NCBI GenBank assembly: GCA_965233585.1
Contig: CBDDTI010000745.1
Span: forward strand, 224,001 to 288,000
Direction: 5' to 3'
Origin: a bacterium
Lineage (GTDB): Bacteria > SAR324 > NAC60-12
Length of the DNA: 64,000 bases
The number at the start of each line of letters is the position of its first letter. Position 1 is the first letter of the stretch. Below are positions 1-50,928 of this stretch, piece after piece. The notes under the pieces were generated by a model, which was not told the DNA's origin, did no database searches, and saw only the letters and a program-made list of their open reading frames with translations. Made by a program: the position numbers and the translations under genes.

Positions 1-897
1 AATCAGAATTGCTACCGCCAAGCAGACCAGACCACTTCTTATTACCTGAACTGTCATACTTCACTAAAAACATGTCCTGAAATCCTGAATTGGAATTGGT
101 GTGTCCATCAAAATTTCCCCCAGAGTATCCTGTGACGTAAACATTGCCTGCAGAATCCACACTCACTCCTTTTCCATAATCATTACTGCTACTGCCAAGC
201 AACCTAGACCACTTCTTGTTGCCTGAACTGTCATACTTCACTAAAAACATGTCCTTGTCTCCTGAATTAGCATGTCCATCAAAATTTCCTCCAGAGGTTC
301 CTGTGACGTAAACATTGCCTGCTGAATCCACACTCACTCCTTTTCCAGAATCCCAATCGCTACTGCCAAGCAGTTTTGACCACTTCTTCACTCCTGAACT
401 GTCATACTTGACTAAAAACATGTCCCTACCTCCTGAATTGGTCTTTCCATCAAAATTTCCCCCAGAGTCTCCTGTCACATACACATTCCCTGCAGAATCC
501 ACAACCACTCCTCTTCCTTCATCATAACTGCTCGTGCCAAGCAGTTTAGACCACTTCTTCACTCCTGAACTGTCATACTTCACTAAAAACATGTCATCAT
601 ATCTTGAATTGCTGTGTCCATCAAAATTTCCCCCAGAGTATCCTGTGACGTAGACATTGCCTGCAGAATCCACACTCACTCCATATCCATAATCACCACT
701 GCTACTGCCAAGCAGTTTAGACCACTTTTTGTTACCTGAACTGTCATACTTGATTAAAAACATGTCAGAGTATCCTGAATTGGTGTGTCCATCAAAATTT
801 CCCCCAGAGTATCCTGTGACGTAGACATTGCCTGCTGAATCCACACTCACTCCTTCTCCATAATCATGACTGCTACTGCCAAGCAGTTTAGACCACT
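1..897 (-). repeat. Second array of 171-bp blade repeats (5 full units plus 1 partial visible)
   Basis: Anchors at 891, 720, 549, 378, 207, 30; the last interval is 177 bp because of a 6-bp duplication near 88-99. Confidence 0.95.
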
Positions 898-9334: not shown

Positions 9335-9988
9335 ATGAAACACAAGATTTTCTTTTTCCTTTTGTTGATGGGATTGGCTTCTGTGGCAACTGCACAAGGT
9401 GAAGTCAAAGGCATTTTGCATCAACTTCAAGAGACGTATTCACAAGTTCAGGGTTTTCAAGGTCAATTCAAACAAGAGCATTACACCAAGAAGGGGGAAG
9501 CGCCACGTCATGCAACAGGTGTGATTTCATACAAACACCCTGACCAAATGCGTTGGGAATATGACCCGCCCAATGCTCAGACATTAGTCATCAATTCTGA
9601 AACCATGTGGCTTTATGACCCTTTGTTGGAAAACGTCACCATTCGTGATGTTAAAAAATCTGAAGGAGGAAATGCCTTGTTAGAGTTGATGGATTTTGGA
9701 AACTTGACACAAAACTTTACACAACGACTTTTGACGAGAAAGATTCTTAAAGACACTGAAAATAGAGTCATTGAACTGATTCCCAAACACACCCGCATTG
9801 GCGATTTAAAGTTTGCACAAATTGAAGTCTCAGAAGACCGTCATGTCAGCCGTTTGGTGCTTTTTAATCAGAGAGGAAGCTATCAAATTTTTGAGCTGAT
9901 ACATATTGATTATGCTCCTTCTTTTGATGAGAATTTTTTTGAGTTTCAAGTCTCTGAGAACATGGAGGTCATTTATCTCAATGAATGA
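9335..9988 (+). CDS. lolA: Outer membrane lipoprotein carrier LolA
   Basis: Signal peptide; FKQ...PDQMRWEY...WLYDPLLENVT. Confidence 0.85.
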   Translation: MKHKIFFFLLLMGLASVATAQGEVKGILHQLQETYSQVQGFQGQFKQEHYTKKGEAPRHATGVISYKHPDQMRWEYDPPNAQTLVINSETMWLYDPLLENVTIRDVKKSEGGNALLELMDFGNLTQNFTQRLLTRKILKDTENRVIELIPKHTRIGDLKFAQIEVSEDRHVSRLVLFNQRGSYQIFELIHIDYAPSFDENFFEFQVSENMEVIYLNE

Positions 9989-10010: not shown

Positions 10011-12188
10011 ATGAGTGAATATCTGCTAACTTTACCTCATTTGGAGATCATTACCATTTCTACTGCGCTTTTGTGCGGGGTGGTGTTGATGGTGGTTGCA
10101 CATTACATGAATCTGCCTGCCATTGCCCCGCTCTTGGTAGGAGGGTTGTTGCTGGGACCAGAAGGCATCGGTGTTGTCAATCCCAGTGTTTTGGGTGAGG
10201 GTGTGCAAATTTTGATTCCCCTTGCCGTGGCAATTATCTTGTTTGAAGGTGGTCTAAACTTGAACCCTGACGGGTTTAAAAGTGCCTCTACCATGATCAA
10301 AAGATTGCTGACTTTGGGCGTTCTAATCACATGGCTAGGTTCTTCACTTGCGGCATATTGGTTGTTTGACATGACACCTTTGATGGCATTGTTGTCAGGC
10401 AGTGTGATTATTGTCACAGGACCGACTGTCATCAATCCCTTGCTTCAAAGGATTGGAGTGAGAGAAAGGCTTCATCAGATTTTGTATTGGGAGGGAGTGC
10501 TGATTGACCCGATTGGTGTGTTCATTGCCATTTTTTGCTTTGAGCTTTTGACGTTGGGACACATGGCAAGTGGCTGGACGTTGTTTGGGAAGTTTACCTT
10601 ACGTCTGATGCTAGGCTTGGCACTGGGGAGCTTTGGTGGCTGGGTGGTGTTTCATATCATCAAAAAAAAGTGGATTCCTCAAAAGTATGTTAATATTCTG
10701 GTTTTAGCGATTGTTCTGTTTCTGTTTAGTCTCTCTGATACCATTTTAACAGAATCTGGGCTTTTGACAGTGGTCGTGATGGGCTTGATTTTGGGGTGGC
10801 TTAAAGTCCCTGCACTGGAAGACATTCGGGCATTTAAATCAGAATTAACCGAGATGAGCATTGCGCTTTTGTTCATACTCTTGGTCACCAATTTAAACCT
10901 AGACAATTTTTACAAGATGGGAATCAATGGGATAGTCATCACGGCGATTGTGATTTTTGTCATTCGTCCTTTGGGGGTGTTGATGTGTTCATTTGGCACA
11001 AAGATTCTCTGGCGGGAGAGGATTTTCTTAAGTTGGATTGCTCCGCGTGGAGTCGTTGCAGGGTCTATGGCGTCCTTGTTTGCCATTAAACTACAAGGTC
11101 AAGAGGGTGCATGGTTTTTGGAGTCTTTTGCTTTTACCATCATCACCGTTACGATTTTATTTCAAGGACTTTCTGCTTCTTGGCTCACCAAATGGCTGCA
11201 CGTCAAATTCCCCCCAAGAACGGGCTGGTTGATTGTTGGAGCGAATTTGTTAGGTCGGCAGATTGCAGAAAAGATCATGCAACACAATCGTTCGTTTTGT
11301 GTACTGCTTGACCTCAATTCTGATTTAGTGGACAAATCGCACCAAGAGGGTTTTGTTGCGATTTGTGGTGATGCCCTGAACCTTCAGGTTGTTCCCCAAG
11401 AATTGACAGAGTCCATTGGCAATGTTCTGGCTTTGACTGATAACAGACACTTGAATCAACTGATTTGTGAAAAATGGCAGACTCACCCGCACAAGATGAA
11501 CGCATGGCGTTGGTCTTCTCACGAAAACACCATTCACTCCAAATCAAGCGGTCAAGTTTGGAATCGTTTGCAAAGCCCTGCTGACATCTCCTTTTTATTA
11601 AAGACCCAAAAATCGCATTTAGCGATGTACTCACCTCCTGATTCTCTCCTCCAGTGGAGCGATGACATTCCTCTCATCTATTTTGGTTCGGGTCAAGTAG
11701 AGTGCTGCACAGACACACAAGAAAAACGTCATGGAAAGTCTTTGGTTTACCAACCGACACACAAGTTTTTATCCCGCTATTTGCAACAAGACCATATCTT
11801 GCACATTTGTCCTGACACCTTGCTTGGGGGTTTTAACGAATTATTAAACCTTGCACAAAAAGCAGAGATTGAATTTGATTTGCCTCAAACCTTGCTTGCC
11901 ATTGATAACAAATCGTTGGTGATGGCAGAAGGTCAAGGATTGATGGCATGTACAATTCCTACTAAGCTGGAGCTTCCTAAGTGTTTGGTGGCAATTTGTT
12001 CTGTTGGTGAAAATCAAGAGACGCTACCGTTTTCAGTCCTTTTCTTGTGGTTTGAATCCCAAGAACCCCAAGACCAGTTGCAGGCAAAACAATTTTTTCA
12101 ATCTCTGTTGAAACAACCTGAATCCATCAATGCTCTTGCTGATTCCAAATCGTTGCAAGAGGCTCTTTCAAAACTTATTAAAATGTAA
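10011..12188 (+). CDS. CPA1/NhaP-type cation:proton antiporter with TrkA-N-like and C-terminal domains
   Basis: ILFEGGL, TGPTVI, EGVLIDP and APRGVVA motifs; LIVGAN follows the membrane domain. Confidence 0.85.
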   Translation: MSEYLLTLPHLEIITISTALLCGVVLMVVAHYMNLPAIAPLLVGGLLLGPEGIGVVNPSVLGEGVQILIPLAVAIILFEGGLNLNPDGFKSASTMIKRLLTLGVLITWLGSSLAAYWLFDMTPLMALLSGSVIIVTGPTVINPLLQRIGVRERLHQILYWEGVLIDPIGVFIAIFCFELLTLGHMASGWTLFGKFTLRLMLGLALGSFGGWVVFHIIKKKWIPQKYVNILVLAIVLFLFSLSDTILTESGLLTVVVMGLILGWLKVPALEDIRAFKSELTEMSIALLFILLVTNLNLDNFYKMGINGIVITAIVIFVIRPLGVLMCSFGTKILWRERIFLSWIAPRGVVAGSMASLFAIKLQGQEGAWFLESFAFTIITVTILFQGLSASWLTKWLHVKFPPRTGWLIVGANLLGRQIAEKIMQHNRSFCVLLDLNSDLVDKSHQEGFVAICGDALNLQVVPQELTESIGNVLALTDNRHLNQLICEKWQTHPHKMNAWRWSSHENTIHSKSSGQVWNRLQSPADISFLLKTQKSHLAMYSPPDSLLQWSDDIPLIYFGSGQVECCTDTQEKRHGKSLVYQPTHKFLSRYLQQDHILHICPDTLLGGFNELLNLAQKAEIEFDLPQTLLAIDNKSLVMAEGQGLMACTIPTKLELPKCLVAICSVGENQETLPFSVLFLWFESQEPQDQLQAKQFFQSLLKQPESINALADSKSLQEALSKLIKM

Positions 12189-12192
12189 TGCT

Positions 12193-13035
12193 ATGATTCT
12201 TTTGACCCCATTATTGACGATTGAAACTTTCCGACCTGAGATTTTTTCACTCACCATTCCCTTTCTTAACTTCACACTGGAACCACGTTTTTATGGACTC
12301 GCTTATGCAATCTCGCTGATGATTGGCTACAAGATTGTCCTTTCAGAGTTTAGGCGTCAGAAAATAGATTACAACGAAGACCAGACAATGAATCTGGTGA
12401 TGATTGTTTTCGCAGGTGGTTTGTTGGGAGGGCGTGCGTATGAAGTGATTTTTGAATGGTCAAACCACTATGCGTTCCGTCCTTGGTATGATGCGTTTGC
12501 TGTTTGGAATGGGGGGCTTGCCATTCATGGTGGGATTCTTGGAGGGATTTTGTCAGGTTTTTTTGTGGCTAAGAAGTATCAAATCCCCTTTTTAAAACTA
12601 GCTGATATTGGTGCATTGTGCATGATTCAAGGGCAAGCCATTGGACGGTGGGGGAATTTTACGAATGGTGAGGCGGCTGGTCCTGTAACAGATTTCTGGG
12701 CGGGCGTCGTCTTTCCCAAAGGTTCTGTTACCTATCTTTACGCACAGGGTCAACCTGTCCATCCGACGATGGTTTATGAATCGCTAGGCAACATCGTCAT
12801 CTTTTGCTTTCTTTGGAAGATGCGAACCTTCGGCTTTAAACACGGCATGCTTTTAGCTTGCTATCTCATCTTATATTCAGTCTGGAGAATGTTCTTGACT
12901 CCATTGAGAATGGATAATCAATTTTTTACGATTGGCGGACTTCAGGTGCTAGCGGCTTACGCCACAGGGGGTGCCTTAGTCTTGTTGGCATTGTCCATGA
13001 TTTTTTCTCAAAAACTCTATCAAAAGAGTCATTGA
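12193..13035 (+). CDS. lgt: Prolipoprotein diacylglyceryl transferase
   Basis: GGLAIHGG, GRWGNFTNGE, HPTMVYE. Confidence 0.95.
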   Translation: MILLTPLLTIETFRPEIFSLTIPFLNFTLEPRFYGLAYAISLMIGYKIVLSEFRRQKIDYNEDQTMNLVMIVFAGGLLGGRAYEVIFEWSNHYAFRPWYDAFAVWNGGLAIHGGILGGILSGFFVAKKYQIPFLKLADIGALCMIQGQAIGRWGNFTNGEAAGPVTDFWAGVVFPKGSVTYLYAQGQPVHPTMVYESLGNIVIFCFLWKMRTFGFKHGMLLACYLILYSVWRMFLTPLRMDNQFFTIGGLQVLAAYATGGALVLLALSMIFSQKLYQKSH

Positions 13036-13218: not shown

Positions 13219-14799
13219 ATGTTGAGAAAAAACATTTTTGGTAGATTCGTTGGAGTCTTTGCTTTAGTCTTTGCAGTAGCTAGCTGTTCAGACGAGCAAG
13301 TTGAACAAGCTCTAAGCTGGACTTGTGAAGTGAAAGCAGAACAAACTTTGACACTTGGAGAAAGCTATCAGGCTTCCCTAGATTGTTCTTACTCTGGAGA
13401 ATTGCCAGAACAGGCAAAACTTGAAGTTCAGCATGACAAAGACTTTTTAAGTCTGGAAGTTCAGGAAGAGCAAGTGAATTTTGAAAGTCTTGATGGGAAA
13501 TTGCTGATAGACGTTCCAGATGAAAAGACATTTCAAGTCGCCTTGAGTCTTGAGGCTCATCAGGTAGGTCAGTCCAAATTACTTGTTAAATTCAAAGGGT
13601 TTGAATCTGAAGCCCTTTTTAAAGTTGTTGACTCTCTTCCAAAACAAAAACCTAACGCAGCACCTCAAGCCGTGAACAGTCCGATTGTAGAAATTCATGC
13701 AGGTCCAACTTTTAGTGTCATTAGAAGAGATGATGGAAGCCTTTGGGCATGGGGACAAAAAGGTGAGAATCTTGGAATTGGAGTGAAATACAAAAGGTCT
13801 GACGATGTCCTATCAACCCCTACCAAAGTCAAGACATCACAGACCTTTAGCCAGCTCACTGTTGGTCAATATTTTGTGCAAGCACTCAAAGCAGATGGAA
13901 GCCGTTGGTTTTGGGGACAAGGAATTGCTGGCAGTTTTGGCTTAGGTGACGGAAATTATCAAGAACCTGACGTCCCTACATTAGCCGACAGCGGGCAGTC
14001 ATGGAAGAAACTAGATGCTAGTTTTTGGCTTGCTTCTGGTCTTAAGGACGATGGGACTTTGTGGGTTTGGGGAGATGCAGATTTTGGGGTAGGGAATGGG
14101 AATTACGGCAGAGTCAAAACTCCTGCAAAGGTGCTTTCTGATTCATGGAAAGATGCCTCTGTTGGTTATAAGAGCATCCTTGCTGTCAAACAAGATGGCA
14201 GTTTGTGGGGTTGGGGACAATCCAGAAATATGAACTTGACTCCCATATCAGGCAAGCTTGGCATCGCTACAACTTATTACAGTGCTTACTATGTCGTGGG
14301 GGAAGGTCTTAAAAAAACAAGCTTTCCAACTCAAATTGGGTCAGATAAGAATTGGGCAACTGTTCAAACTGGTGACAGTCACGTCTTAGCCTTGAAACAA
14401 GATGGAAGCCTCTGGTCATGGGGAGCAAATCATAGAGGGCAGTTGGGCATTGCTGGCACTGATGCTGTTGTCAAACCCACTCAAGTTGGTTCAGATAAGG
14501 ATTGGAAAGCCATTAGCACATACGACATTCATAATCTTGCCTTAAAAACAGACGGAAGCCTCTGGGCATGGGGATTCAACGGTAATGGACAACTTGGCGT
14601 CGGTTCTACTTCTGACAAAAACACTCCTGTTCGTGTAGGTTCTGGGAAAGATTGGGTGTCTATTTCTGCTGGTTCTGGGCATAGTTTGGCTTTGAAAACA
14701 GACGGAAGCCTTTGGGCTTGGGGTTGGAATGTCTACGGTCAGATAGGTGATGGAACAACAACCAAAAGGAAGACACCTGTTAAAATTTTGGACAAATAA
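13219..14799 (+). CDS. Lipoprotein with C-terminal RCC1/BLIP-II-type beta-propeller repeats
   Basis: Lipobox VASC; repeated LALKxDGSLWAWGxNxxGQLG. Confidence 0.9.
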   Translation: MLRKNIFGRFVGVFALVFAVASCSDEQVEQALSWTCEVKAEQTLTLGESYQASLDCSYSGELPEQAKLEVQHDKDFLSLEVQEEQVNFESLDGKLLIDVPDEKTFQVALSLEAHQVGQSKLLVKFKGFESEALFKVVDSLPKQKPNAAPQAVNSPIVEIHAGPTFSVIRRDDGSLWAWGQKGENLGIGVKYKRSDDVLSTPTKVKTSQTFSQLTVGQYFVQALKADGSRWFWGQGIAGSFGLGDGNYQEPDVPTLADSGQSWKKLDASFWLASGLKDDGTLWVWGDADFGVGNGNYGRVKTPAKVLSDSWKDASVGYKSILAVKQDGSLWGWGQSRNMNLTPISGKLGIATTYYSAYYVVGEGLKKTSFPTQIGSDKNWATVQTGDSHVLALKQDGSLWSWGANHRGQLGIAGTDAVVKPTQVGSDKDWKAISTYDIHNLALKTDGSLWAWGFNGNGQLGVGSTSDKNTPVRVGSGKDWVSISAGSGHSLALKTDGSLWAWGWNVYGQIGDGTTTKRKTPVKILDK

Positions 14800-30103: not shown

Positions 30104-31588
30104 ATGTCTTATTTATCCTTCAACAAAAACACACTTCTTGCCTTTGTTCTGGCAACAATTCCTTTACAAACCTTCTCTGCACAGCATTTCTTGAGTGTGA
30201 GCTACTGGGTCGGTGCTACTGCTGATTCTGTCAAGCAACAGATGACCAATGGCGTAGATTTAGAAGCACAAGACGAAAGCGGTAGAACTCCTTTACACTT
30301 TGCTGCAACTTTCAGCAAAAAAGTAGAGGTGTTAGAAGTTTTGATAAAGGGTGGTGCAGACTTAGAGGCACGAACACGAGATGACCAGACTCCCCTGCAC
30401 CGTGCAGCTGCCAAGAATAAAAATGCAGAAGTGTTGAAGTTGCTGATAGAGAGTGGTGCAGATTTAGAAGCACGAGACCAAAATGGCTGGACTCCCCTGC
30501 ACCGTGCAGCTGCCTTTAACAGCCAACCTCAAATGTTACAAACCCTCATAGAGTCAGGGGTAGATTTGGAAGCACGAGACAAAATTGGTTGGACTCCTTT
30601 GCACTTTGCCTCAGCATTTAGTCAGCAACCTCAAGTTCTGGAAATTCTTATGGAACATGGTGCAGATTTAGAAGCACGAGACCAATACGGTCAGACTCCC
30701 TTGCACTTAGCCACAAAATATAGCAATGTTCCAGAAGTGCTGGAGTTTCTCATAAAGCATGGTGCGGATTTAGAGGCACAAGACCGAAACAGCTGGACTC
30801 CTTTACACTTTGCCGCTGCATTTAGCAATCAAACTCAAATTGTGGAAGTTTTGATAGAGCGTGGTGCAAATTTAGAAGGAAGCATTGTTGGAGATTTGAC
30901 TCCCTTACATTTAGCCGCAAGATATAGCCAAAATGCAAAAGTTGTGGAAGTTTTGATAGAGAATGGTGCAAATTTAGAAGCAAGAGACCAAGACGGTTGG
31001 ACTCCCTTGTTCTTTGCTTCCTCCTTCAATAAAAAAACGGAAGTGTTAGAAGTTTTGATAAAGAATGGAGCAAGTTTAGAAGTACGAGACCAAAATGGTT
31101 GGACTCTCTTGCATGCGGCAACTGCAAATAACGACCAAGCTCAAATTGTGGAAATTCTGATAAAGAGTGGAGCAGATTTAGAAGCACAAGACCAAGACGG
31201 CTGGACTCCCTTGTTCTTTGCTTCCTCCTTCAATAAAAAAACAGAAATATTGAACACTCTGATAAAGAGTGGAGCAGATTTGGAAGTGCGAGACAAAAAC
31301 GACTGGACTCCCTTGCATGCAGCAGCTGCATTTAGCAACCAAGCTCAAATTGTGGAAGTTTTGATAAAGAGTGGAGCAGATTTGGAAGCACAAGACAAAA
31401 TCGGTTGGACTCCCTTGCATGCAGCAGCTGCAAACAACGACCAAGCTCAAATTGTGGAAGTTTTGATAAAGAGTGGGGCAGATTTGAAAGTACGAGACCA
31501 AAACGGCTGGACTCCTTTGGATTTAATTCAAGCAAACACAAAATTAAAAGAGACAGTCAAACTATTGCAAGATTTGAAAGACCGCTGA
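30104..31588 (+). CDS. Secreted ankyrin-repeat protein (13 repeats, 34-aa period)
   Basis: Signal peptide; GADLEARDxxGWTPLHxAA repeats. Confidence 0.95.
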   Translation: MSYLSFNKNTLLAFVLATIPLQTFSAQHFLSVSYWVGATADSVKQQMTNGVDLEAQDESGRTPLHFAATFSKKVEVLEVLIKGGADLEARTRDDQTPLHRAAAKNKNAEVLKLLIESGADLEARDQNGWTPLHRAAAFNSQPQMLQTLIESGVDLEARDKIGWTPLHFASAFSQQPQVLEILMEHGADLEARDQYGQTPLHLATKYSNVPEVLEFLIKHGADLEAQDRNSWTPLHFAAAFSNQTQIVEVLIERGANLEGSIVGDLTPLHLAARYSQNAKVVEVLIENGANLEARDQDGWTPLFFASSFNKKTEVLEVLIKNGASLEVRDQNGWTLLHAATANNDQAQIVEILIKSGADLEAQDQDGWTPLFFASSFNKKTEILNTLIKSGADLEVRDKNDWTPLHAAAAFSNQAQIVEVLIKSGADLEAQDKIGWTPLHAAAANNDQAQIVEVLIKSGADLKVRDQNGWTPLDLIQANTKLKETVKLLQDLKDR

Positions 31589-41815: not shown

Positions 41816-41913
41816 ATATCAAATATCCAGAAAATGAGTTAGAATAGACCATTTTATTTGGATTACTTGAAACATTCAATGATTAGAAACAGACAATGAT
41901 TGGAAATTTTCTT

Positions 41914-42528
41914 ATGAAGCAAATGCTTGTTGTGATTCTTGGCTTTCTTTTGTTTTTTTCAGGTTGCACTTCTGGACAAGATGAATTGATTAGCACGGCA
42001 GAAGCAAACAATCTGGAGCAAGTGAAGCAATTAGTGGAGTCAGGTGCGTCCATCAACGTGCAAAACAAAGTGGGGCAAAGTGCATTAATCTGGTCTGCCA
42101 TTCACGACAATCAGGACATGGCTCATTTTCTTTTGGCAAAAGGTGCAACAATAGATTTGGCTGAGATTACGGGACAAACAGCGTTGAGCTTCGCCTCTAT
42201 TGCAAACTCACCAAACGTCGCATTGACCTTAGTTCAAGCTGGGGCAAACCTTAATGTGATTGATGATTTTGGTTGGACTCCTCTGATGCTAGCTGCAGAC
42301 AGTGGTAGTCTTGAAACAGCACAGACGTTGTTGAGAAATCAAGCAAATTTATCTGTGACAAGCCCTGACGGTTGGACTGCCCTGACTTTAGCAGCAAGAC
42401 ACCGTGACATAGAACTTGTGAAAATGTTGATGGCATACGGGGCAGATGCACAACTGGCTTGGACGTGGGCTATTGAAAAGCGAGAGATTGAAGTCATTGA
42501 AACCTTACAACTCCTTCAGTCTCAATGA
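41914..42528 (+). CDS. Ankyrin-repeat lipoprotein
   Basis: Lipobox FSGC; GQTAL/GWTPL repeats. Confidence 0.88.
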   Translation: MKQMLVVILGFLLFFSGCTSGQDELISTAEANNLEQVKQLVESGASINVQNKVGQSALIWSAIHDNQDMAHFLLAKGATIDLAEITGQTALSFASIANSPNVALTLVQAGANLNVIDDFGWTPLMLAADSGSLETAQTLLRNQANLSVTSPDGWTALTLAARHRDIELVKMLMAYGADAQLAWTWAIEKREIEVIETLQLLQSQ

Positions 42529-44136: not shown

Positions 44137-47100
44137 ATGAAGTCTCAATTTATTATTTTGTGCAGCGCTTTGGGGCTGTTCCTTTTGCCAAGTCTGGCTT
44201 TGGCTCAAGTCACAACATCTGTGCAAGATGAACCTTTTGGACAAGTGGTTGAGTACAAGGAGGGGGGCAGTCTCCAAAAGATTGAAGTTAAAACAGCAAT
44301 TAAAACTCAAGCACAGTTCAAACTGAGTTTAGCCAATACTTCTACAACTTCCTCCAAAATTTTTACTCTGTCTTCTACTTCTAACTGGCTACAATACGAT
44401 TCTGTTTCTCGTGGGAAAGCTTTTGACCGTGTAACAGGTAGAGATTCTGTTGATGAAAAAACCATCACATTGCCTGCCAGTTCCAATACAACCACCTCCT
44501 TTCAAACTGCCAAACTGATTCACACAGGAAATTATGTTTCTTACCTCCAAGGGTTATCTTCCGTCTTACCTCTTCACTTAAATTTACAAGAATGCGTCAC
44601 TTCGCAAAGTGGGAATCTTTTAGACCCTGCCACTTATGATGGGGGCAGTATTTGTGGCAAACAACAGACCTCGGCAAAAATTGCATCAGGGCATACGGTT
44701 GTTTGGAATAGCACACCGGAGGCTTCTAATGTCATTCATGTCCAAGATGGTGGCATTTTAGAGTTGGCATATACGGGGACGTTTCAAGGTCAAGTCGTTT
44801 TGGAAAAAGGTGCAACTTTAAAAATTACACAAGACACCACCTTGTCAAAATTTAAAATGACTGGCGATGCAACCATTCAAATTGCAGATAGTAGGACTGT
44901 GGAGATTCCTCATCAAATCGGCATTCCATTTCACCAAACACTCACCGTCAGTGGTGGACGGTTGAAGGGTGAAAGAATGGTCATTTATGGCACTTTGACA
45001 ACAGACCAAACGATTATAGAAAATCAAATTTTGGTTGCAAATGGGACGATTCAAACCCAGAAATCAAGCCAAATTTTAGGTGCTATTCAATATGCCGACA
45101 AAGCATTGAAGGAACAACCTAACCATCTACTGAAAGACTTCACTCCTATCCGAGAAGATGACAGAAAAATGATGTATGCCATACACGATTTTGACGGGGA
45201 CGGAGATCAAGATCTTTTCGCAAGAGATGTGAATCATGGGCTGATTTATTATCGCAACGTTGGCACTTTGCAAAAACCTAAATTTGAGAGAAAGCAAATT
45301 CCCAGAGGAATTTATAAGCTCTACGATGTTGGTAGATCCTCTTGGACATACTCCATAGAAACTTTGTATGAGAATCAAATACCTAAGTATATTGCAATTG
45401 GAGCGATCGGAGTTCGGGGGATTTACGAGAACATTGGTAATGCCACAGATTGGAATTTAAAACTTTTAGATCGCACACTAGTGTCAAGTACACCAGTGTA
45501 TTTTATGGATGTGAATGGAGATCATACTTATGAACTGGTCCTGAATTGGTTGGACTTAGAAGTCCTTTCACTCAAAGAATTAAAATTCCTATATGATGAG
45601 AGGTATCCTTTTTATTATCAAGCCATACTAGATGTTGACGGAGATAGAGACCCCGATATGTTTAGTATTGATAACGATCAGGAGGTTCTCACCTATCACC
45701 AAAACATCAGATACGACAGCAGACCGATTGATGCAGAAAAGCAAAAGTTGTATGATTCAGGCGATTTTTTGTCAAGGTGGCAACATTCTCCAGAGGTCTT
45801 TCCAAGCCATGCTTACAAAGAATCTATACCATTTATCAGAGATTTAAACGATGACCAAGTGCCAGAACTTTATCTGCTCACCAAGCTCAATGACCCTATC
45901 CAAGCACTTGAGTTTTTCCCGTACGACAAAGCAACCATTTTCAGCGATAGCAATGAAAGTGTCTTAAAACTTGCAGAATCCCTCACAGTTCCAGAGTATT
46001 CTAAACTTGAAATTTCAGGCTCAAACATTGTCATTCAAGGAGACCTGAACATTCACCCAAAACTCACTCTTCAAACATCAACTCATGTGCAAGGAAACAT
46101 CAGCCTGTACAAAGACTTCACAGCTTTCAAAGATTTGACGATTGCAGGAACAACGACTATAAACGGATCACTTAAGCTTGACCTACGTGAAAATTTTTCA
46201 ACAAAAAATTTGGCGATTCTTGAAAAGTTCAATCCTTTGAATACTCCCACTATGGCAATAGAAAATAGCTTTGGAAAAGATTTTAAGATTGAAAAGCAAC
46301 TGACTGCTAAACATGTTCTTCTGGGAATCACAGGAGGGCGTGTGTTTTTGCCTGAAGTGATAGACCTAGAAGATTCAGCTTTAATGATCGTTCCCAATTC
46401 ATTTCACAATTCTATCAAAACACTCAACCTAGCCAGTGGGAATGTAACATTGAATGTCAATATTGCTCGCCTCAATTCAAGCGGAACAGCCGTTGTGTCA
46501 AATGCTCAAATAGATGAGCTTGTCACACGTGACAACCTGAGATTAAGAAATGCAACAATCAACAACAACTTTCATTTGAACGACCCGAATGCTCTGCTGA
46601 AGCTGGAGGGGGACAACACTTGGAAGGGGAAGTTTCATTTGGAGAAAGGGACGTTTGAAGCCGTTGGAACTGACACAACCTTTGAAGCCCCAGTAGAAAT
46701 TGCAACAACTGCAACTTTTACACAACAATACAACAGACCTACTGTGAAGTTTCAGCAATCAACAACGCTTTCTGGCGTAGTCAATTTTGAAACCTTTGAC
46801 TTTCCCAGAGACCACAGTATCTTTTTTGAAGCTCCTTTGACTATCAGTGGAGCTTTAAAAAATACTGGTAACTTGAGAACTTCGGACACGACCTTGATTC
46901 AGGAATCTGGAACATTGACAAACAATGGTTCGGCAAACTTCCAGAAGTCATTGATTTTGAATGGGAAGTTAGAAAGTTATGGACCATTGTACATTGGTAA
47001 TATTGAGTTTGGAAAGGGGCAACTTTTTTCCGATGGTGTAGCGGTGACCTTTGCAAGTCAAGAAACCCTTTTTCAAAGAGAACCTGAGACAATACCCAAA

Positions 47101-50100
47101 TCAGGAATTGGTGTGGCACTTGTACAACTACCAACAGGGACGTTTCAAATCCATTCTATTCTCCCAGGCGGTGCGGCAGACAAACACGGCTTCTTAAAAC
47201 CCCAAGACTCCATTCTCCAAGTTTCACAAGATGGAATCACCTTTGAAAGTGTGGTCGGCTGGACAATGGCAGATTTGATCAGTAAATTGACAGGTCCTGA
47301 AGACTCTACCGTTTGGCTTGAAATTAACAGACAAACGCCCAGCGCTTTGGTGACTCACAAAATCAATCTCGTTAGAAAACCTGTGATTCAAAGGGAAGTC
47401 ACTGCTCGTTTTGAAGAAAGTGGAATCTCTACTACAAAGCCTTCTCATACTTGGAAAATTGGGAAACATGCCAAAGTAGAAGTAGAAGGAGGAATCATGC
47501 GAAAAATTGCTATTCCTGAGATTCAAGGTGAATTGTCACTTAAAAATGTGAGGTGGTTTGCTCGAAAAGACATTTCTATCGCTTCTGGTGGGATTTTGAA
47601 AAACGAAGGCTGGGGTCTTTCTTTTGACAACCTGAAACTTGATGGAATTTTAGAAAGCAAGCAAGGAGATCTTGATTTTCGTCAATTGACATTAGGAGAA
47701 GGTGTCCTTCGTATTGAAGGAGGTCAAACTAAGTTCCCCATCGCTACTTCAATCACTTTTACAGGTCAGCATACTTTTAGGAATGTTGACATTCAAACCA
47801 GAAGAACAGGTTCAACAAGTGTCTGGAATATAGGAAAGAACACCAAGTTATCCATAGACGGAGGGTCAGTGAAAGACATAGAACTTGGTGAGATTCAAAG
47901 TGATTTTTCTTGGGAGAACGCTGTCATCAACATTCAAAAAACAGAAACTACTGTCCATGACAAAATCACCTTCAAGAACAAAGGTGGTGATGTTCGCTTC
48001 AAACATTTCAAACTTGATGGAACGTTTGAAAATACAAACGGCAATGTTGCCTTTGAAAAACTGACCATCGGGTCAACTGGTCATTTTCAAGTAACCGGCG
48101 GAACAATGAAATTCCCCATCGCCACTTCAGTGACTTTTACAGGTCAACACACTTTTAGGAATGTTGACATTCAGACAATCACAGCAGGTTCTACAAGCGT
48201 TTGGAATATAGGAAAGAACACCAAGTTATCCATAGACGGAGGGTCAGTGAAAGACATAGAGCTTGGTGAAATTCAAAGTGATTTTTCTTGGGAGAATGCT
48301 GTCATCAACATTCAAAAAACAGAAACTACTGTCCATGACAAAATCACCTTCAAGAACAAAGGGGGTGATGTTCGCTTCAAACACTTCAAACTTGATGGGA
48401 CATTTGAAAATACAGACGGCAATGTTGCCTTTGAAAAACTGACCATCGGCTCAACTGGTAGCGTTCAGGCAACTGGTGGAACAATGAAATTCCCCATCGC
48501 CACTTCAGTTACTTTTGCAGGTCAGCATACTTTTAGGAATGTTGACATTCAGACCATCACAGCAGGGTCAACAAGCGTCTGGAATATAGGAAAGAACACC
48601 AAGTTATCCATAGACGGAGGGTCAGTGAAAGACATAGAACTTGGTGAGATTCAAAGTGATTTTTCTTGGGAAAATGCTGTCATCAACATTCAAAAGACAG
48701 AAACTACTGTGCATGACAAAATCACCTTCAAGAATAAAGGGGGAGATGTTCGCTTCAAACACTTCAAACTTGATGGGACATTTGAAAATACAGACGGCAA
48801 TGTTGCCTTTGAAAGATTGACAATCGGCTCAACTGGTAGCATTCAGGCAACTGGTGGAACAATGAAATTCCCCATCGCCACTTCAGTCACTTTCGTTGCA
48901 GGAACAAAAGCAAGGTTTGTCAATGTAGATTTAAGCTCATTAGTTGCAGGACAAAAAAGTGTGTGGTTCATAGACGACAAAGCGACTGTGGAAATCATTG
49001 GCGGTTCAATCCAAGATATTGAAATCAAAACAGGATTGCTTTCAACCAAAGGAACAGAAGACAAAGGAGGCAATACAAATCTGATTACAGGAGGGTCAGG
49101 TAAGAAAACTGTGCAAACAGGCAACACTAAAGTCAGTGTTCCTGCCGATGAAATCAAAGAAAACCCTGATAAATCCGTCACTTTTACCAAAAAGACGAAA
49201 GAAGGCAAAACTGAAACAACACTTTATTCTGATGGTAAAGTACAAATTAAAAAAACAACTACAAGGCAGGGTAAACAGATTGAAACAGAAGTGGAAGCTC
49301 CTCCAAATTCAAAAACTGACACCGATGAAAAATCTGGTATTACTGTGACAGAAAGTCAGCTGGTTCAGCTCTCCAGAGGTCGGACTTCCCAAACAAAAAC
49401 CTCACTTTATCCTGATGGCAAAGTGAAACATGAAACGATTATTACCTCCTCTACTGGTCAAAAGACAATTACTGAAACCAAAGTGCCAGAAGGAGTGAAA
49501 GTAGAGATTGCCTCTTCAGGATACTCCGCCATCGCAGTATCTGACTTTTTAGATGTTGCCGACCCAAAACTTCAGGTAGAAGTGACAAAAATTGAATCGT
49601 TGATAGGATTAGAAGGACGCACTCAAACATTGATTTATACCCAAGACCAAGATGACCCCACTGTCATTGATGCTCCTCTTGCTGTCAAAACTCAAATACA
49701 CCCACTTGCCACAGTTCAGCAATACATTCCTTCTCAACTGGTCAATCAAGTCTCTTCAAACGTCTATCTTTCTGCAAACCGAAAAGGGCAGCTGTTTTCT
49801 TCCTATCACACCAAAGATAAAGATCAAAAATTATTGACTGCCCAAGCCTATCCTGTTTTTGAAAATGGTGCTGATGTCAAAGCAAGTTTTCATTCGGGGC
49901 AGGGACAACTAATTTTGGTGGGTCAAGTTGCAAACCCTTTCATAAATGAACCAAATCTTTTAGTAGGGAAAGACTATGCAACAGGAGACTATGTTCATTT
50001 ATCCGAACGTTCTGCTGATTTTGAGCTGCGGATAGAAAGGAATCTGTTAGAGCCTTTCAATCAAATGTCTGTGGAACAAGGCACTGCGTTTTTAGTGCAA

Positions 50101-50928
50101 AGCACGCAAAGGTTGCCATTGAGAAATGGCAATGCTTTCAACACCAATAGTGAAGCAATTCATATTCCTGCCCAAAAAGATTGGACTCTTCTATCTTTGC
50201 CCATTCAACAAAATTTAAATCTTTTGCAACGAGAATTATTTCTTGCTCAATTTAGTGAATTGAAAGTCTATCAAAAAGGCAAATGGCTGATGGAGACCCC
50301 AAATGGTCGTGAGCATCACAACAACGTTGGAACACTTGCTAAAAATCAAGGTTTCTGGGCAAAACAAGACGAGGCAAGAGCTTTAAACTTATTAGGCACT
50401 GCCGCAGAGGAAGCAGAAATGTCTCTACCCCCTGAAAATTCAGGGTGGCATCTGCTTGGTGTGTCAAAAACCATGTCTCTTGATGAACTACAAGTTTTAT
50501 TAAGCTCTCAAGACGACCCCCAACCCACTTCACAAGCGCTGCCATCAAGTTTGCCTATGACAACAGCATTTGCTTTTGCTTTGGTGTTGCCCCTTGTCAG
50601 TATCAGGCATAAAAGGCAAAAATTGTTGTTAGGTCTAATCGTTCTTTTATTGGTGTCTTGCGCCCCTGAATCTAGTGTCCCTTCCTCCTCAGAACCAGCA
50701 GCAGAAAGTGAACAACCTGTCCAAAAGCAAGCTGGAGATGTTCCAACTTCAGTGATTTGGAAACAAAAAAACAACACTTGGCAAGTCTATTCTTCCCACG
50801 AAGAAACAATGAAAACTCTGCAAGACAAGGGTTTTGAGCAGATTGAAAAAGTTCATGCAGGAGAAGGTCTTTGGATCAACCAAACTTGGACTTCTCTTGC
50901 CACAACCACCCCTCCTCAAGTTCAATAA
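44137..50928 (+). CDS. 2263-aa secreted mosaic surface protein: beta-helix-like passenger, FG-GAP/VCBS motifs, PDZ, 3x126-aa repeats, C-terminal TM-basic-lipobox cassette
   Basis: Signal peptide ...LALA|QV; DFDGDGDQD, DVDGDRDPD; GIGVAL...PGGAA PDZ; 378-bp repeats. Confidence 0.9.
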   Translation: MKSQFIILCSALGLFLLPSLALAQVTTSVQDEPFGQVVEYKEGGSLQKIEVKTAIKTQAQFKLSLANTSTTSSKIFTLSSTSNWLQYDSVSRGKAFDRVTGRDSVDEKTITLPASSNTTTSFQTAKLIHTGNYVSYLQGLSSVLPLHLNLQECVTSQSGNLLDPATYDGGSICGKQQTSAKIASGHTVVWNSTPEASNVIHVQDGGILELAYTGTFQGQVVLEKGATLKITQDTTLSKFKMTGDATIQIADSRTVEIPHQIGIPFHQTLTVSGGRLKGERMVIYGTLTTDQTIIENQILVANGTIQTQKSSQILGAIQYADKALKEQPNHLLKDFTPIREDDRKMMYAIHDFDGDGDQDLFARDVNHGLIYYRNVGTLQKPKFERKQIPRGIYKLYDVGRSSWTYSIETLYENQIPKYIAIGAIGVRGIYENIGNATDWNLKLLDRTLVSSTPVYFMDVNGDHTYELVLNWLDLEVLSLKELKFLYDERYPFYYQAILDVDGDRDPDMFSIDNDQEVLTYHQNIRYDSRPIDAEKQKLYDSGDFLSRWQHSPEVFPSHAYKESIPFIRDLNDDQVPELYLLTKLNDPIQALEFFPYDKATIFSDSNESVLKLAESLTVPEYSKLEISGSNIVIQGDLNIHPKLTLQTSTHVQGNISLYKDFTAFKDLTIAGTTTINGSLKLDLRENFSTKNLAILEKFNPLNTPTMAIENSFGKDFKIEKQLTAKHVLLGITGGRVFLPEVIDLEDSALMIVPNSFHNSIKTLNLASGNVTLNVNIARLNSSGTAVVSNAQIDELVTRDNLRLRNATINNNFHLNDPNALLKLEGDNTWKGKFHLEKGTFEAVGTDTTFEAPVEIATTATFTQQYNRPTVKFQQSTTLSGVVNFETFDFPRDHSIFFEAPLTISGALKNTGNLRTSDTTLIQESGTLTNNGSANFQKSLILNGKLESYGPLYIGNIEFGKGQLFSDGVAVTFASQETLFQREPETIPKSGIGVALVQLPTGTFQIHSILPGGAADKHGFLKPQDSILQVSQDGITFESVVGWTMADLISKLTGPEDSTVWLEINRQTPSALVTHKINLVRKPVIQREVTARFEESGISTTKPSHTWKIGKHAKVEVEGGIMRKIAIPEIQGELSLKNVRWFARKDISIASGGILKNEGWGLSFDNLKLDGILESKQGDLDFRQLTLGEGVLRIEGGQTKFPIATSITFTGQHTFRNVDIQTRRTGSTSVWNIGKNTKLSIDGGSVKDIELGEIQSDFSWENAVINIQKTETTVHDKITFKNKGGDVRFKHFKLDGTFENTNGNVAFEKLTIGSTGHFQVTGGTMKFPIATSVTFTGQHTFRNVDIQTITAGSTSVWNIGKNTKLSIDGGSVKDIELGEIQSDFSWENAVINIQKTETTVHDKITFKNKGGDVRFKHFKLDGTFENTDGNVAFEKLTIGSTGSVQATGGTMKFPIATSVTFAGQHTFRNVDIQTITAGSTSVWNIGKNTKLSIDGGSVKDIELGEIQSDFSWENAVINIQKTETTVHDKITFKNKGGDVRFKHFKLDGTFENTDGNVAFERLTIGSTGSIQATGGTMKFPIATSVTFVAGTKARFVNVDLSSLVAGQKSVWFIDDKATVEIIGGSIQDIEIKTGLLSTKGTEDKGGNTNLITGGSGKKTVQTGNTKVSVPADEIKENPDKSVTFTKKTKEGKTETTLYSDGKVQIKKTTTRQGKQIETEVEAPPNSKTDTDEKSGITVTESQLVQLSRGRTSQTKTSLYPDGKVKHETIITSSTGQKTITETKVPEGVKVEIASSGYSAIAVSDFLDVADPKLQVEVTKIESLIGLEGRTQTLIYTQDQDDPTVIDAPLAVKTQIHPLATVQQYIPSQLVNQVSSNVYLSANRKGQLFSSYHTKDKDQKLLTAQAYPVFENGADVKASFHSGQGQLILVGQVANPFINEPNLLVGKDYATGDYVHLSERSADFELRIERNLLEPFNQMSVEQGTAFLVQSTQRLPLRNGNAFNTNSEAIHIPAQKDWTLLSLPIQQNLNLLQRELFLAQFSELKVYQKGKWLMETPNGREHHNNVGTLAKNQGFWAKQDEARALNLLGTAAEEAEMSLPPENSGWHLLGVSKTMSLDELQVLLSSQDDPQPTSQALPSSLPMTTAFAFALVLPLVSIRHKRQKLLLGLIVLLLVSCAPESSVPSSSEPAAESEQPVQKQAGDVPTSVIWKQKNNTWQVYSSHEETMKTLQDKGFEQIEKVHAGEGLWINQTWTSLATTTPPQVQ
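47734..48893 (+). repeat. Three near-identical 378-bp (126-aa) intragenic repeats
   Basis: TTCCCCATCGC anchors at 47734, 48112, 48490, 48868. Confidence 0.95.

Follow-up and report, generated by a model that had tools for sequence, protein, structure and literature searches.

The window considered here is a stretch of 64,000 nucleotides (nt) from a bacterium of the SAR324 lineage (NAC60-12; assembly GCA_965233585.1, contig CBDDTI010000745.1, positions 224,001 to 288,000 of the forward strand), and it holds an open reading frame (ORF) for a giant protein of 2263 amino acids (aa), P0001. The C-terminal module of P0001 contains two copies of a small domain, the second of which is interrupted by a cassette of two hydrophobic helices (TM1 and TM2, for transmembrane), a basic loop between them, and a lipobox-like Cys. 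This arrangement suggests a lipoprotein signal placed deep inside a giant protein. The parts of the module were located with a query of aa 1990-2263, its homologues, two alignments (A1, 36 rows; A2, 13 rows), and an AlphaFold2 model with its predicted local distance difference test (pLDDT) scores, and they are as follows.

44137..50928, + strand: gene for the giant protein P0001, 2263 aa, stop codon included, from the ORF reading.
50173..50400, + strand: copy 1 of the unnamed GWNL...IWKW...GEGFWVN domain, contiguous, aa about 2013-2088, from homologues and model residues 26-98 (pLDDT about 83-96).
50437..50508, + strand: N-terminal half of copy 2, strand 1 (GWHLLG) and helix 1, aa about 2101-2124, from A1 and the model (strand 114-119, helix 126-134, pLDDT 86-95).
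50509..50556, + strand: Pro/Ser/Gln linker before TM1, aa 2125-2140, with a Pro (P151 of the query) kept in at least 90% of A2 rows.
50557..50604, + strand: TM1, MTTAFAFALVLPLVSI, aa 2141-2156, proposed stop-transfer helix running from outside to inside, from the sequence and a model helix at 155-164.
50605..50622, + strand: basic loop RHKRQK, aa 2157-2162, net charge +4 by count, proposed to be cytoplasmic and the n-region of an internal signal peptide.
50623..50661, + strand: TM2, a 12-residue h-region with the lipobox L-V-S-C, LLLGLIVLLLVS-C, aa 2163-2175, from sequence and conservation.
50662..50745, + strand: Pro/Ser/Glu-rich tether past the Cys (APESSVPSSSEPAAESEQP...), aa 2176-2203, from the sequence; rich in Gly, Ser, Pro, and Asp in relatives.
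50746..50892, + strand: C-terminal half of copy 2, strands 2 and 3, helix 2, and strand 4 (VIWKQK, TWQVYS, GLWINQ), aa about 2204-2252, from A1 and the model (pLDDT 85-97).
50893..50925, + strand: C-terminal tail with an invariant Pro-Pro, aa 2259-2260 (nt 50911-50916), which is P270 and P271 of the query, invariant in 13 of 13 A2 rows.

The motifs that mark the domain copies start at aa 2015 (DWTLLSLP, nt 50179), aa 2103 (GWHLLGV), and aa 2205 (SVIWKQKNN). The Cys of LLVSC, Cys2175, has the codon tgc at 50659-50661. From C2175 to Q2263 the chain measures 89 aa, with 101 residues past the basic patch, and the insert in copy 2 occupies about 80 aa between helix 1 and strand 2. An earlier reading of the bare DNA letters (hereafter the sequence-only reading) had given the 2263-aa protein, the domain motifs, the Cys2175 codon at 50659, and the 89-aa tail, and all were exact.

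That reading had also claimed two copies of one domain, the second interrupted. Direct alignment of copy 1 with the halves of copy 2 stays at chance level, with a score of 25 for one half against 20.7 +/- 4.0 for shuffles (155 of 1000 as high) and 23 for the other against 23.3 +/- 4.3 (515 of 1000 as high). Because this alignment is not significant, the claim was tested through homologues, and there it was borne out. A HMMER scan with the query against 1.84 billion representative proteins returned 135 that match the C-terminal module at E <= 0.001, most of them consisting of copies, often in tandem, of a small domain that reads GWNLxGL, about 20 aa, SIWKWxxNxWxVYxP, GF, and GEGFWVN. In A1, both halves of copy 2 map onto one contiguous domain of other proteins, with W115, W219, W226, G255, and W257 invariant or nearly so. 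In 181 of 207 motif pairs among the 135 matches, 15-24 aa separate the GW block from the W block that follows it; in P0001 and P0002 the distance is 99 aa, and these two are the sole outliers apart from pairs in which the pattern skipped to the next repeat. The cassette itself is present in five of the 135, which were drawn from all of life (P0001, P0002, P0008, P0013, and P0100).

The domain appears to be unnamed. No Pfam or NCBIfam family was found for the last 249 aa of P0001, nor any Pfam family in four proteins made of the domain only (P0024, P0026, P0033, and P0063); with no Pfam model for it, a new family could be defined. It is present, often in tandem, in many proteins (P0024, P0026, P0028, P0033, P0063, and other matches), and genome records that contain a relative are titled Betaproteobacteria, Campylobacterota, Desulfobacteraceae, and Thermoplasmata, among others.

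AlphaFold2, run with A1, modelled aa 1990-2263 of P0001 at a mean pLDDT of 80.0 and a predicted template modelling score of 0.70. The order of elements in the two copies is alike, namely strand, helix, strand, strand, (helix,) strand, and the 10-residue blocks of copy 2 score 86-95 for GWHLLG and helix 1 and 85-97 past the tether. A second model, of a member of genus g11 that is 22% identical, gives the same picture at a mean pLDDT of 72.7, with blocks of 82-97 in the halves of copy 2. Foldseek found no match in the PDB at E <= 0.001, and the ESM Atlas returned one unnamed cluster at 0.88, which is under the trust level. With VIA-align, copy 1 (model 26..100) superposes on HPr (Z 4.6, root mean square deviation 2.8, 66 aligned), and the model range 112..264 superposes on the 85-residue NPr, a paralogue of HPr (Z 3.7, root mean square deviation 3.5, 66 aligned). 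The latter 66 residues come from a range that spans the insert and lie on one 85-residue domain, and they are therefore drawn from both halves. For the g11 member, matches to the long TM1 helix crowded the VIA-align output and made it uninformative. From these ranges, rather than from contacts, we infer that the modelled halves of copy 2 form one compact domain like copy 1, as the sequence-only reading had anticipated.

The same insert at the same site was found in proteins only about 20-25% identical when 41 related genomes were searched and their loci read. The nearest relative, P0002 (41% identical), has the same layout, with TTPIVFVLAFLLPFFH, MKNQRQK, and LLIVFIVLILFS-C-GSPS, and the lipoboxes of other relatives include LLAC/GGGG, LYAC/GGGG, LMSC/APE, and LTSC/NPQ (the slash follows the Cys). 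A2 shows an invariant Cys, four invariant domain Trp residues, and the Pro-Pro near the C-terminus. Run against 88 genomes of the phylum, 45 of family f1 and 43 others, the A2 profile matched whole modules at 25 places and partial ones at four more (two at contig ends), in 22 of the 45 f1 genomes and in 8 genera; the 43 genomes outside f1 gave no whole-module match, and the three matches in family f7, one of the families among them, are confined to the domain. The named members of f1 are SAR324 metagenome-assembled genomes ("SAR324 cluster bacterium," "Deltaproteobacteria bacterium TL4"). The sequence-only reading had pointed to similar tails in large Acidobacteria proteins; among the genomes searched here, f1 is the one family in which the cassette was found.

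We read through 26 cassette modules, leaving out the partial match G007:C276. All 26, which come from 8 genera of family f1 and from independent assemblies, carry the insert at the same site, keep the frame open through the cassette, and have [AS]-C at the lipobox, and in 16 of the 26 the Cys is the only one of the module. Three modules were left out of alignments: L088, with one difference from L085 over 235 residues; L094, which is the window itself; and L097, which is truncated. Twelve further modules of the same family (L098, L099, L101, and L116-L124) have a contiguous copy 2, for example GWNLLGTQHEVMIQSLLDRNSQIRSIWNWKDNRW, and keep the Pro-Pro tail, and none of these 12 has a Cys. Such insert-free modules share some genomes (G003, G007, G008, and G016) with cassette genes. 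In a maximum-likelihood tree of 38 modules, built on 194 shared columns of which none lies in the insert (the insert state of L076 and L125 was assigned by eye), the 26 cassette rows and the 12 others part at one branch with an SH-aLRT (approximate likelihood ratio test) value of 97. On this tree, one change of state suffices for the split, which would allow a single origin.

In the window's own assembly, a strict cassette pattern matches one of 25,214 ORFs of at least 80 aa. A loose pattern matches 12; the other 11 have 2 to 11 hydrophobic segments and are mostly polytopic membrane proteins, some on small contigs. Because the strict pattern is unique in the assembly and the insert recurs at the same site in relatives about 20% identical, we take the cassette to be more than chance. 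The search for further cassettes that the sequence-only reading had proposed thus gave a single one in its own genome and the same site in relatives, and the conservation of Cys and lipobox on which that reading depended holds as well.

The features of the cassette resemble those of a lipoprotein signal. A PROSITE-type lipoprotein rule asks for the lipobox [LVI]-x-[GAS]-C after an uncharged run and for a positive n-region before the h-region. An alignment of 25 cassette rows and three without it (A4) was compared with the pattern {DERK}(6)-[LIVMFWSTAG](2)-[LIVMFYSTAGCQ]-[AGS]-C, and the core of this pattern is present in 23 of the 25 cassette rows. Loop, h-region, and post-Cys figures were taken from 23 rows. 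The loop between the helices spans 3-23 aa and has a net charge of +1 to +7 in all 23, and the Cys is preceded by 12-22 uncharged aa (12 in P0001; 12-14 aa in six of the 23). The residue after the Cys is Ala (15), Gly (7), or Asn (1) and never Asp. The tether past the Cys is rich in Gly, Ser, Pro, and Asp (CGGGGGGGSSS, CAPPQSDSTSS), and the fragment after the Cys measures 83-127 aa in relatives. On the four large contigs of the genome, about 125 candidate N-terminal lipoproteins have similar boxes, including VVS-C and FVS-C. Such precursors carry their Cys within about the first 15-35 residues, and the Cys of P0001 is residue 2175 of 2263. Judged by its sequence, the cassette would work like a lipoprotein signal, yet it is not a standard member of that class, as it lies far from the N-terminus.

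We consider it somewhat better than an even chance that the cassette combines a stop-transfer helix (TM1) with an internal type-II signal peptide (TM2), on which Lgt and LspA would act to yield an 89-aa lipoprotein that completes the split domain. The genome has the parts such a route would need, including a candidate export signal on P0001 itself.

44137..44205, + strand: Sec-type signal peptide of P0001, aa 1-23 (MKSQFIILCSALGLFLLPSLALA/Q), by the A-x-A rule, with the site placed by eye.
12130..13035, + strand: lgt, prolipoprotein diacylglyceryl transferase (PF01790, 181.9 bits).
9335..9988, + strand: lolA, periplasmic lipoprotein carrier (PF03548, 88.7 bits).

Outside the window, lspA lies on contig C729 (PF01252, 120.2 bits) and two lnt-like genes lie on C747 (TIGR00546, 193.9 and 190.8 bits); the matches for lgt, lspA, the lnt-like genes, and lolA are all over their family cut-offs. 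LptF/G, LolA, and Lgt in the window fit the two-membrane SAR324 group. The genome also encodes an RseP-like M50 protease and two secretins.

The order of events can be pictured from the positive-inside rule and from the fact that Lgt and LspA act at the outer face of the membrane on N-terminal signals. The N-terminal signal peptide would carry some 2,100 aa across the inner membrane until TM1 halted transfer, and the basic loop would remain cytoplasmic. TM2 would then insert with its N-terminus inside and its C-terminus outside, exporting the last 89 aa, after which Lgt could place diacylglycerol on Cys2175 and LspA could cut ahead of it. Two chains would result, a passenger ending in strand 1, helix 1, the linker, and the hairpin, and an 89-aa lipoprotein with strands 2 to 4 and helix 2. 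Held together by complementation, with the domain complete only when both are present, the two pieces would give the giant a lipid-anchored partner at its C-terminal end. The sequence-only reading had spoken of a released passenger, and on this point it needs correction: a cut by LspA would leave TM1, the loop, and TM2 on the passenger's C-terminus. An internal translation start for a small lipoprotein was considered and dropped; Met or Val stands before the basic loop in some members (L095, L096) and not in others (L092).

Several observations weigh against an internal lipoprotein signal. Two of the 25 A4 cassette rows miss the lipoprotein pattern, only at position -2 (His, Trp), and TM1 of P0001 is short (16 aa) and contains a Pro. 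The conserved [AS]-C-[AG] junction would suit signal peptidase I too. In the model of P0001, the helices of the hairpin have middling confidence, with 10-residue blocks of 50-79, and the structural matches are weak (all with Z < 5), pointing to the compactness of copy 2 and to no named fold. Because the relatives are kin, the counts make the support look more independent than it is. We know of no demonstrated Lgt/LspA substrate with an internal signal, which here would stand about 2,160 aa from the N-terminus, and no report of an internal lipobox or internal lipoprotein signal was found in about 8.4 million full texts, subscription-only works aside. Lastly, that Cys2175 is lipidated and the chain cleaved before it is something we infer from the sequence features. 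Searches of the SAR324 literature on lipoproteins, giant proteins, or adhesins found nothing relevant.

The strongest competing explanation is an unprocessed membrane hairpin whose role is limited to fixing the C-terminal end of the giant in the inner membrane; copy 2 would then have its two halves in the periplasm, and the Cys would be kept for another reason or be lipidated without cleavage. Two hydrophobic helices around a positively charged loop are what such an anchor would look like; the chain returns to the same side, so that the domain can fold in cis, as in the models; and as far as the literature search reached, internal substrates of Lgt and LspA are unreported. A plain anchor, however, could do without an invariant Cys, [AS] at -1, or a Gly/Ser-rich tether right behind the Cys, and yet all 26 modules keep [AS]-C while the helices otherwise vary freely. 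The 12-14-aa uncharged run seen in six of 23 rows, P0001 among them, has the length of a signal peptide and not of a membrane span, and a single C-terminal helix would anchor the protein equally well and leave the domain unsplit. We regard the unprocessed hairpin as unlikely, though a serious contender.

A second possibility keeps the cut and drops the lipid, with TM2 cleaved by signal peptidase I or another protease so that a soluble fragment of about 89 aa completes the domain. Small residues at -1 and -3 of the junction (V-S-C/A, V-A-C/A) would allow this, and there are polyproteins whose internal signal peptides are cut by signal peptidase I, the Bradyrhizobium cytochrome b/c1 precursor FbcH being one. 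Signal peptidase I needs no Cys, however, and a Cys in 26 of 26 modules with the insert versus none of 12 without it is what a lipobox predicts, as is the fit of 23 of 25 rows to the lipoprotein pattern. This explanation seems improbable.

The cassette-free relatives bear both on the internal lipoprotein signal and on the next alternative. Of the 12 giant genes that lack the cassette, six have a gene for a small lipoprotein directly downstream, and none of 24 cassette genes has one; the DNA available downstream of the cassette loci was about 1.45-1.5 kb in 23 and 288 nt in one. The six small genes follow the giant genes at distances from a 4-nt overlap to a gap of 230 nt.

L099:974-1168, - strand: small PPSP lipoprotein gene.
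L119:691-987, - strand: small PPSP lipoprotein gene.
L120:1103-1288, + strand: small PPSP lipoprotein gene.
L121:251-442, - strand: small PPSP lipoprotein gene.
L122:831-1028, + strand: small PPSP lipoprotein gene.
L124:269-448, - strand: small PPSP lipoprotein gene.

Their precursors are 60-99 aa long and share an invariant PPSP..L motif (for example MKKNT...LLWAC/QSGSD...AFPPSPVVLMEQAQQLA); the six cases are not independent, four of them being close kin. Searched as a profile, the six lipoproteins match strongly (E < 1e-15) at just seven sites, four in G016 and one each in G006, G007, and G020. The genes beside cassette-free giant genes account for six of them, and the seventh (G016:C598) sits at a contig start. 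Weaker matches were found in G003, G008, and G016, away from giant genes, and in the window's genome no PPSP motif was found beside a lipoprotein signal. As a lead, these neighbours give an independent hint that the C-terminal modules may work with a lipoprotein, either in cis through the cassette or from a neighbouring gene.

The small genes could also be taken as support for a third alternative, in which the Pro motif, the TM1 helix, and the basic patch together act as a C-terminal sorting signal of the sortase type, cut by a dedicated enzyme, with a once-separate lipoprotein gene fused in frame behind it. A Pro before TM1 is nearly invariant, and a motif followed by a helix and a basic cluster is also the order in the tripartite sorting signals of PMC11980579. 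How far the Pro-Pro stands from TM1 is not fixed, however; the gap is about 0-5 aa at one extreme (P0001, L078) and about 25 aa at the other (genus g11, L004). The 38 matches to a helix-plus-basic-tail pattern in the genome share no motif, and this genome has one cassette, whereas sorting tags are shared by several substrates per genome. No exosortase-family gene (PF09721) was found in the assembly, which is 92.5% complete, with the search limited to that family and not extended to the rhombosortase and CPBP families. Sortase-type signals (LPXTG, PEP-CTERM, GlyGly-CTERM, MYXO-CTERM) sit at the extreme C-terminus, but the one here is internal, and what follows the Cys supplies the half that the domain lacks and not an independent protein. 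We think this alternative very improbable. An artefact, be it an error of assembly or sequencing that fused two genes or a hydrophobic stretch that arose by chance, can practically be set aside: the closest relative of P0001 is on record as two proteins, P0003 (1652 aa) and P0002 (208 aa), but they part near the equivalent of aa 2060, inside copy 1 and away from the cassette, P0002 has the whole cassette in one frame, and the open frames of the 26 modules from independent assemblies exclude it. The break between P0003 and P0002 is probably a frameshift or an assembly break.

If TM2 is an internal type-II signal peptide, a more general proposal can be made, which we hold only tentatively and think rather less likely to be right. 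The general lipoprotein pathway may provide sortase-free C-terminal lipid anchoring of giant exported proteins, in which the small lipoprotein half would be carried to its membrane, possibly the outer one by way of LolA, since the residue after the Cys is Ala, Gly, or Asn and never Asp. By complementing strands it would hold the passenger, and it would serve as a staple that links the two membranes or, were the hairpin removed, as the sole anchor of a surface fibre; insert-free relatives would use a separate downstream lipoprotein. The C-terminal Pro-Pro may be a docking peptide. An invariant Pro-Pro just short of the C-terminus marks both kinds of module, those that contain the cassette (EPPAF, FPPAPPGSGL, TTPPQVQ) and those that lack it (KPPSFK, RQPPQF), and a similar Pro-Pro lies ahead of TM1 in most cassette members.

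The rest of P0001 gave few assignments. A scan against Pfam and NCBIfam returned weak matches to FG-GAP, bactofilin-like, and PDZ-like families, of which the last is placed as follows.

47101..47397, + strand: PDZ-like domain, aa 989-1087, nearest to the PDZ of tail-specific (C-terminal processing) peptidases (NF008388, 1.3e-12; NF051464, 6.7e-8; PDZ_6, E 0.048).

The NF008388 and NF051464 matches are both far under the whole-protein cut-offs. As speculation, this domain might bind the conserved Pro-Pro tail, as such domains bind C-terminal tails. Three near-identical repeats of about 135 aa (GGTMKFPIATSVTF.GQHTFRNVDIQT...) were seen by eye at aa about 1130-1590 (window about 47500-48900), and the bactofilin-like Pfam match lies within this region. 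A homologue search limited to candidates of near length recovered P0001 itself alone, and one that admitted longer candidates recovered a single protein, P0136, which lacks the cassette. Giant genes are mostly fragmented in the metagenome-assembled genomes of the relatives, and the frames upstream of smaller cassette proteins are broken into adjoining ORFs. Among relatives, open frames that end in the cassette module reach about 9,500 aa, as in G010:C3 (9484 aa), G023:C18 (8385 aa), and G008:C11 (4871 aa), and the module serves some of the largest proteins in those genomes.

Known systems resemble the cassette in part. Like classical lipoprotein signals, it has a basic n-region, a short uncharged h-region, L-x-[AS]-C, and a flexible tether, and the enzymes for such signals are in the genome. 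Unlike them, it is preceded by about 2,160 residues, which comprise the exported passenger and the proposed stop-transfer helix, and its cleavage would give two products, with the signal peptide left on the upstream one. The FbcH polyprotein shares an internal signal that restarts export and marks where a precursor becomes two proteins, but that signal is of the signal peptidase I type, carries no lipid, and separates two independent proteins, whereas the cassette would separate two halves of one domain. The closest functional analogues are eukaryotic. The GAIN/GPS domain of adhesion G protein-coupled receptors and the SEA domain of mucins are autoproteolytic, remain assembled after the cut, and leave a helical membrane stub, so that a large outer part is held noncovalently on the membrane through a cut domain. 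The cut in the cassette would instead be made by a signal peptidase, and a membrane hairpin lies between the halves.

In apparent purpose, which is to tether a large exported protein to a membrane through a lipid at its C-terminal end, and in layout, the cassette also resembles the MYXO-CTERM/myxosortase, GlyGly-CTERM/rhombosortase, and PGF-CTERM/archaeosortase systems with their motif, helix, and basic cytoplasmic patch (PMC11980579). Those C-terminal sorting signals place the Cys or motif before a single terminal helix, which is removed by a dedicated protease, whereas the Cys of the cassette follows the second helix. About 90-130 residues come after the Cys in the cassette, the lipid would be on a separate fragment, and the machinery would presumably be that of general lipoproteins. 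The preprint by Haft on myxosortases has no mention of lipobox, Lgt, lipoprotein signal, or diacylglycer.

The assembly (G000) comprises 12.0 Mb in 747 contigs, a few of them large (1.07, 0.83, 0.62, and 0.26 Mb) and many small with low-complexity ORFs, and the window encodes ankyrin-repeat and RCC1-repeat proteins at 13219-14799, 30104-31588, and 41896-42528. This make-up may reflect a host-associated bacterium binned with foreign, possibly eukaryotic, DNA.

The accepted picture of bacterial lipoproteins has the lipid on the N-terminus, behind an N-terminal signal peptide, and signal-peptide predictors confined to N-termini would miss sites of the kind proposed here, which is a warning for annotation. 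If the cassette does what its features suggest, the substrate range of Lgt and LspA would extend to a lipobox deep inside a giant protein, and there would be a new route from one gene to a two-chain, lipid-anchored assembly, like that of the GAIN and SEA domains of animals. The proteins concerned are the largest of the abundant, mostly uncultured relatives that bear the SAR324 name, whose envelope biology is little known.

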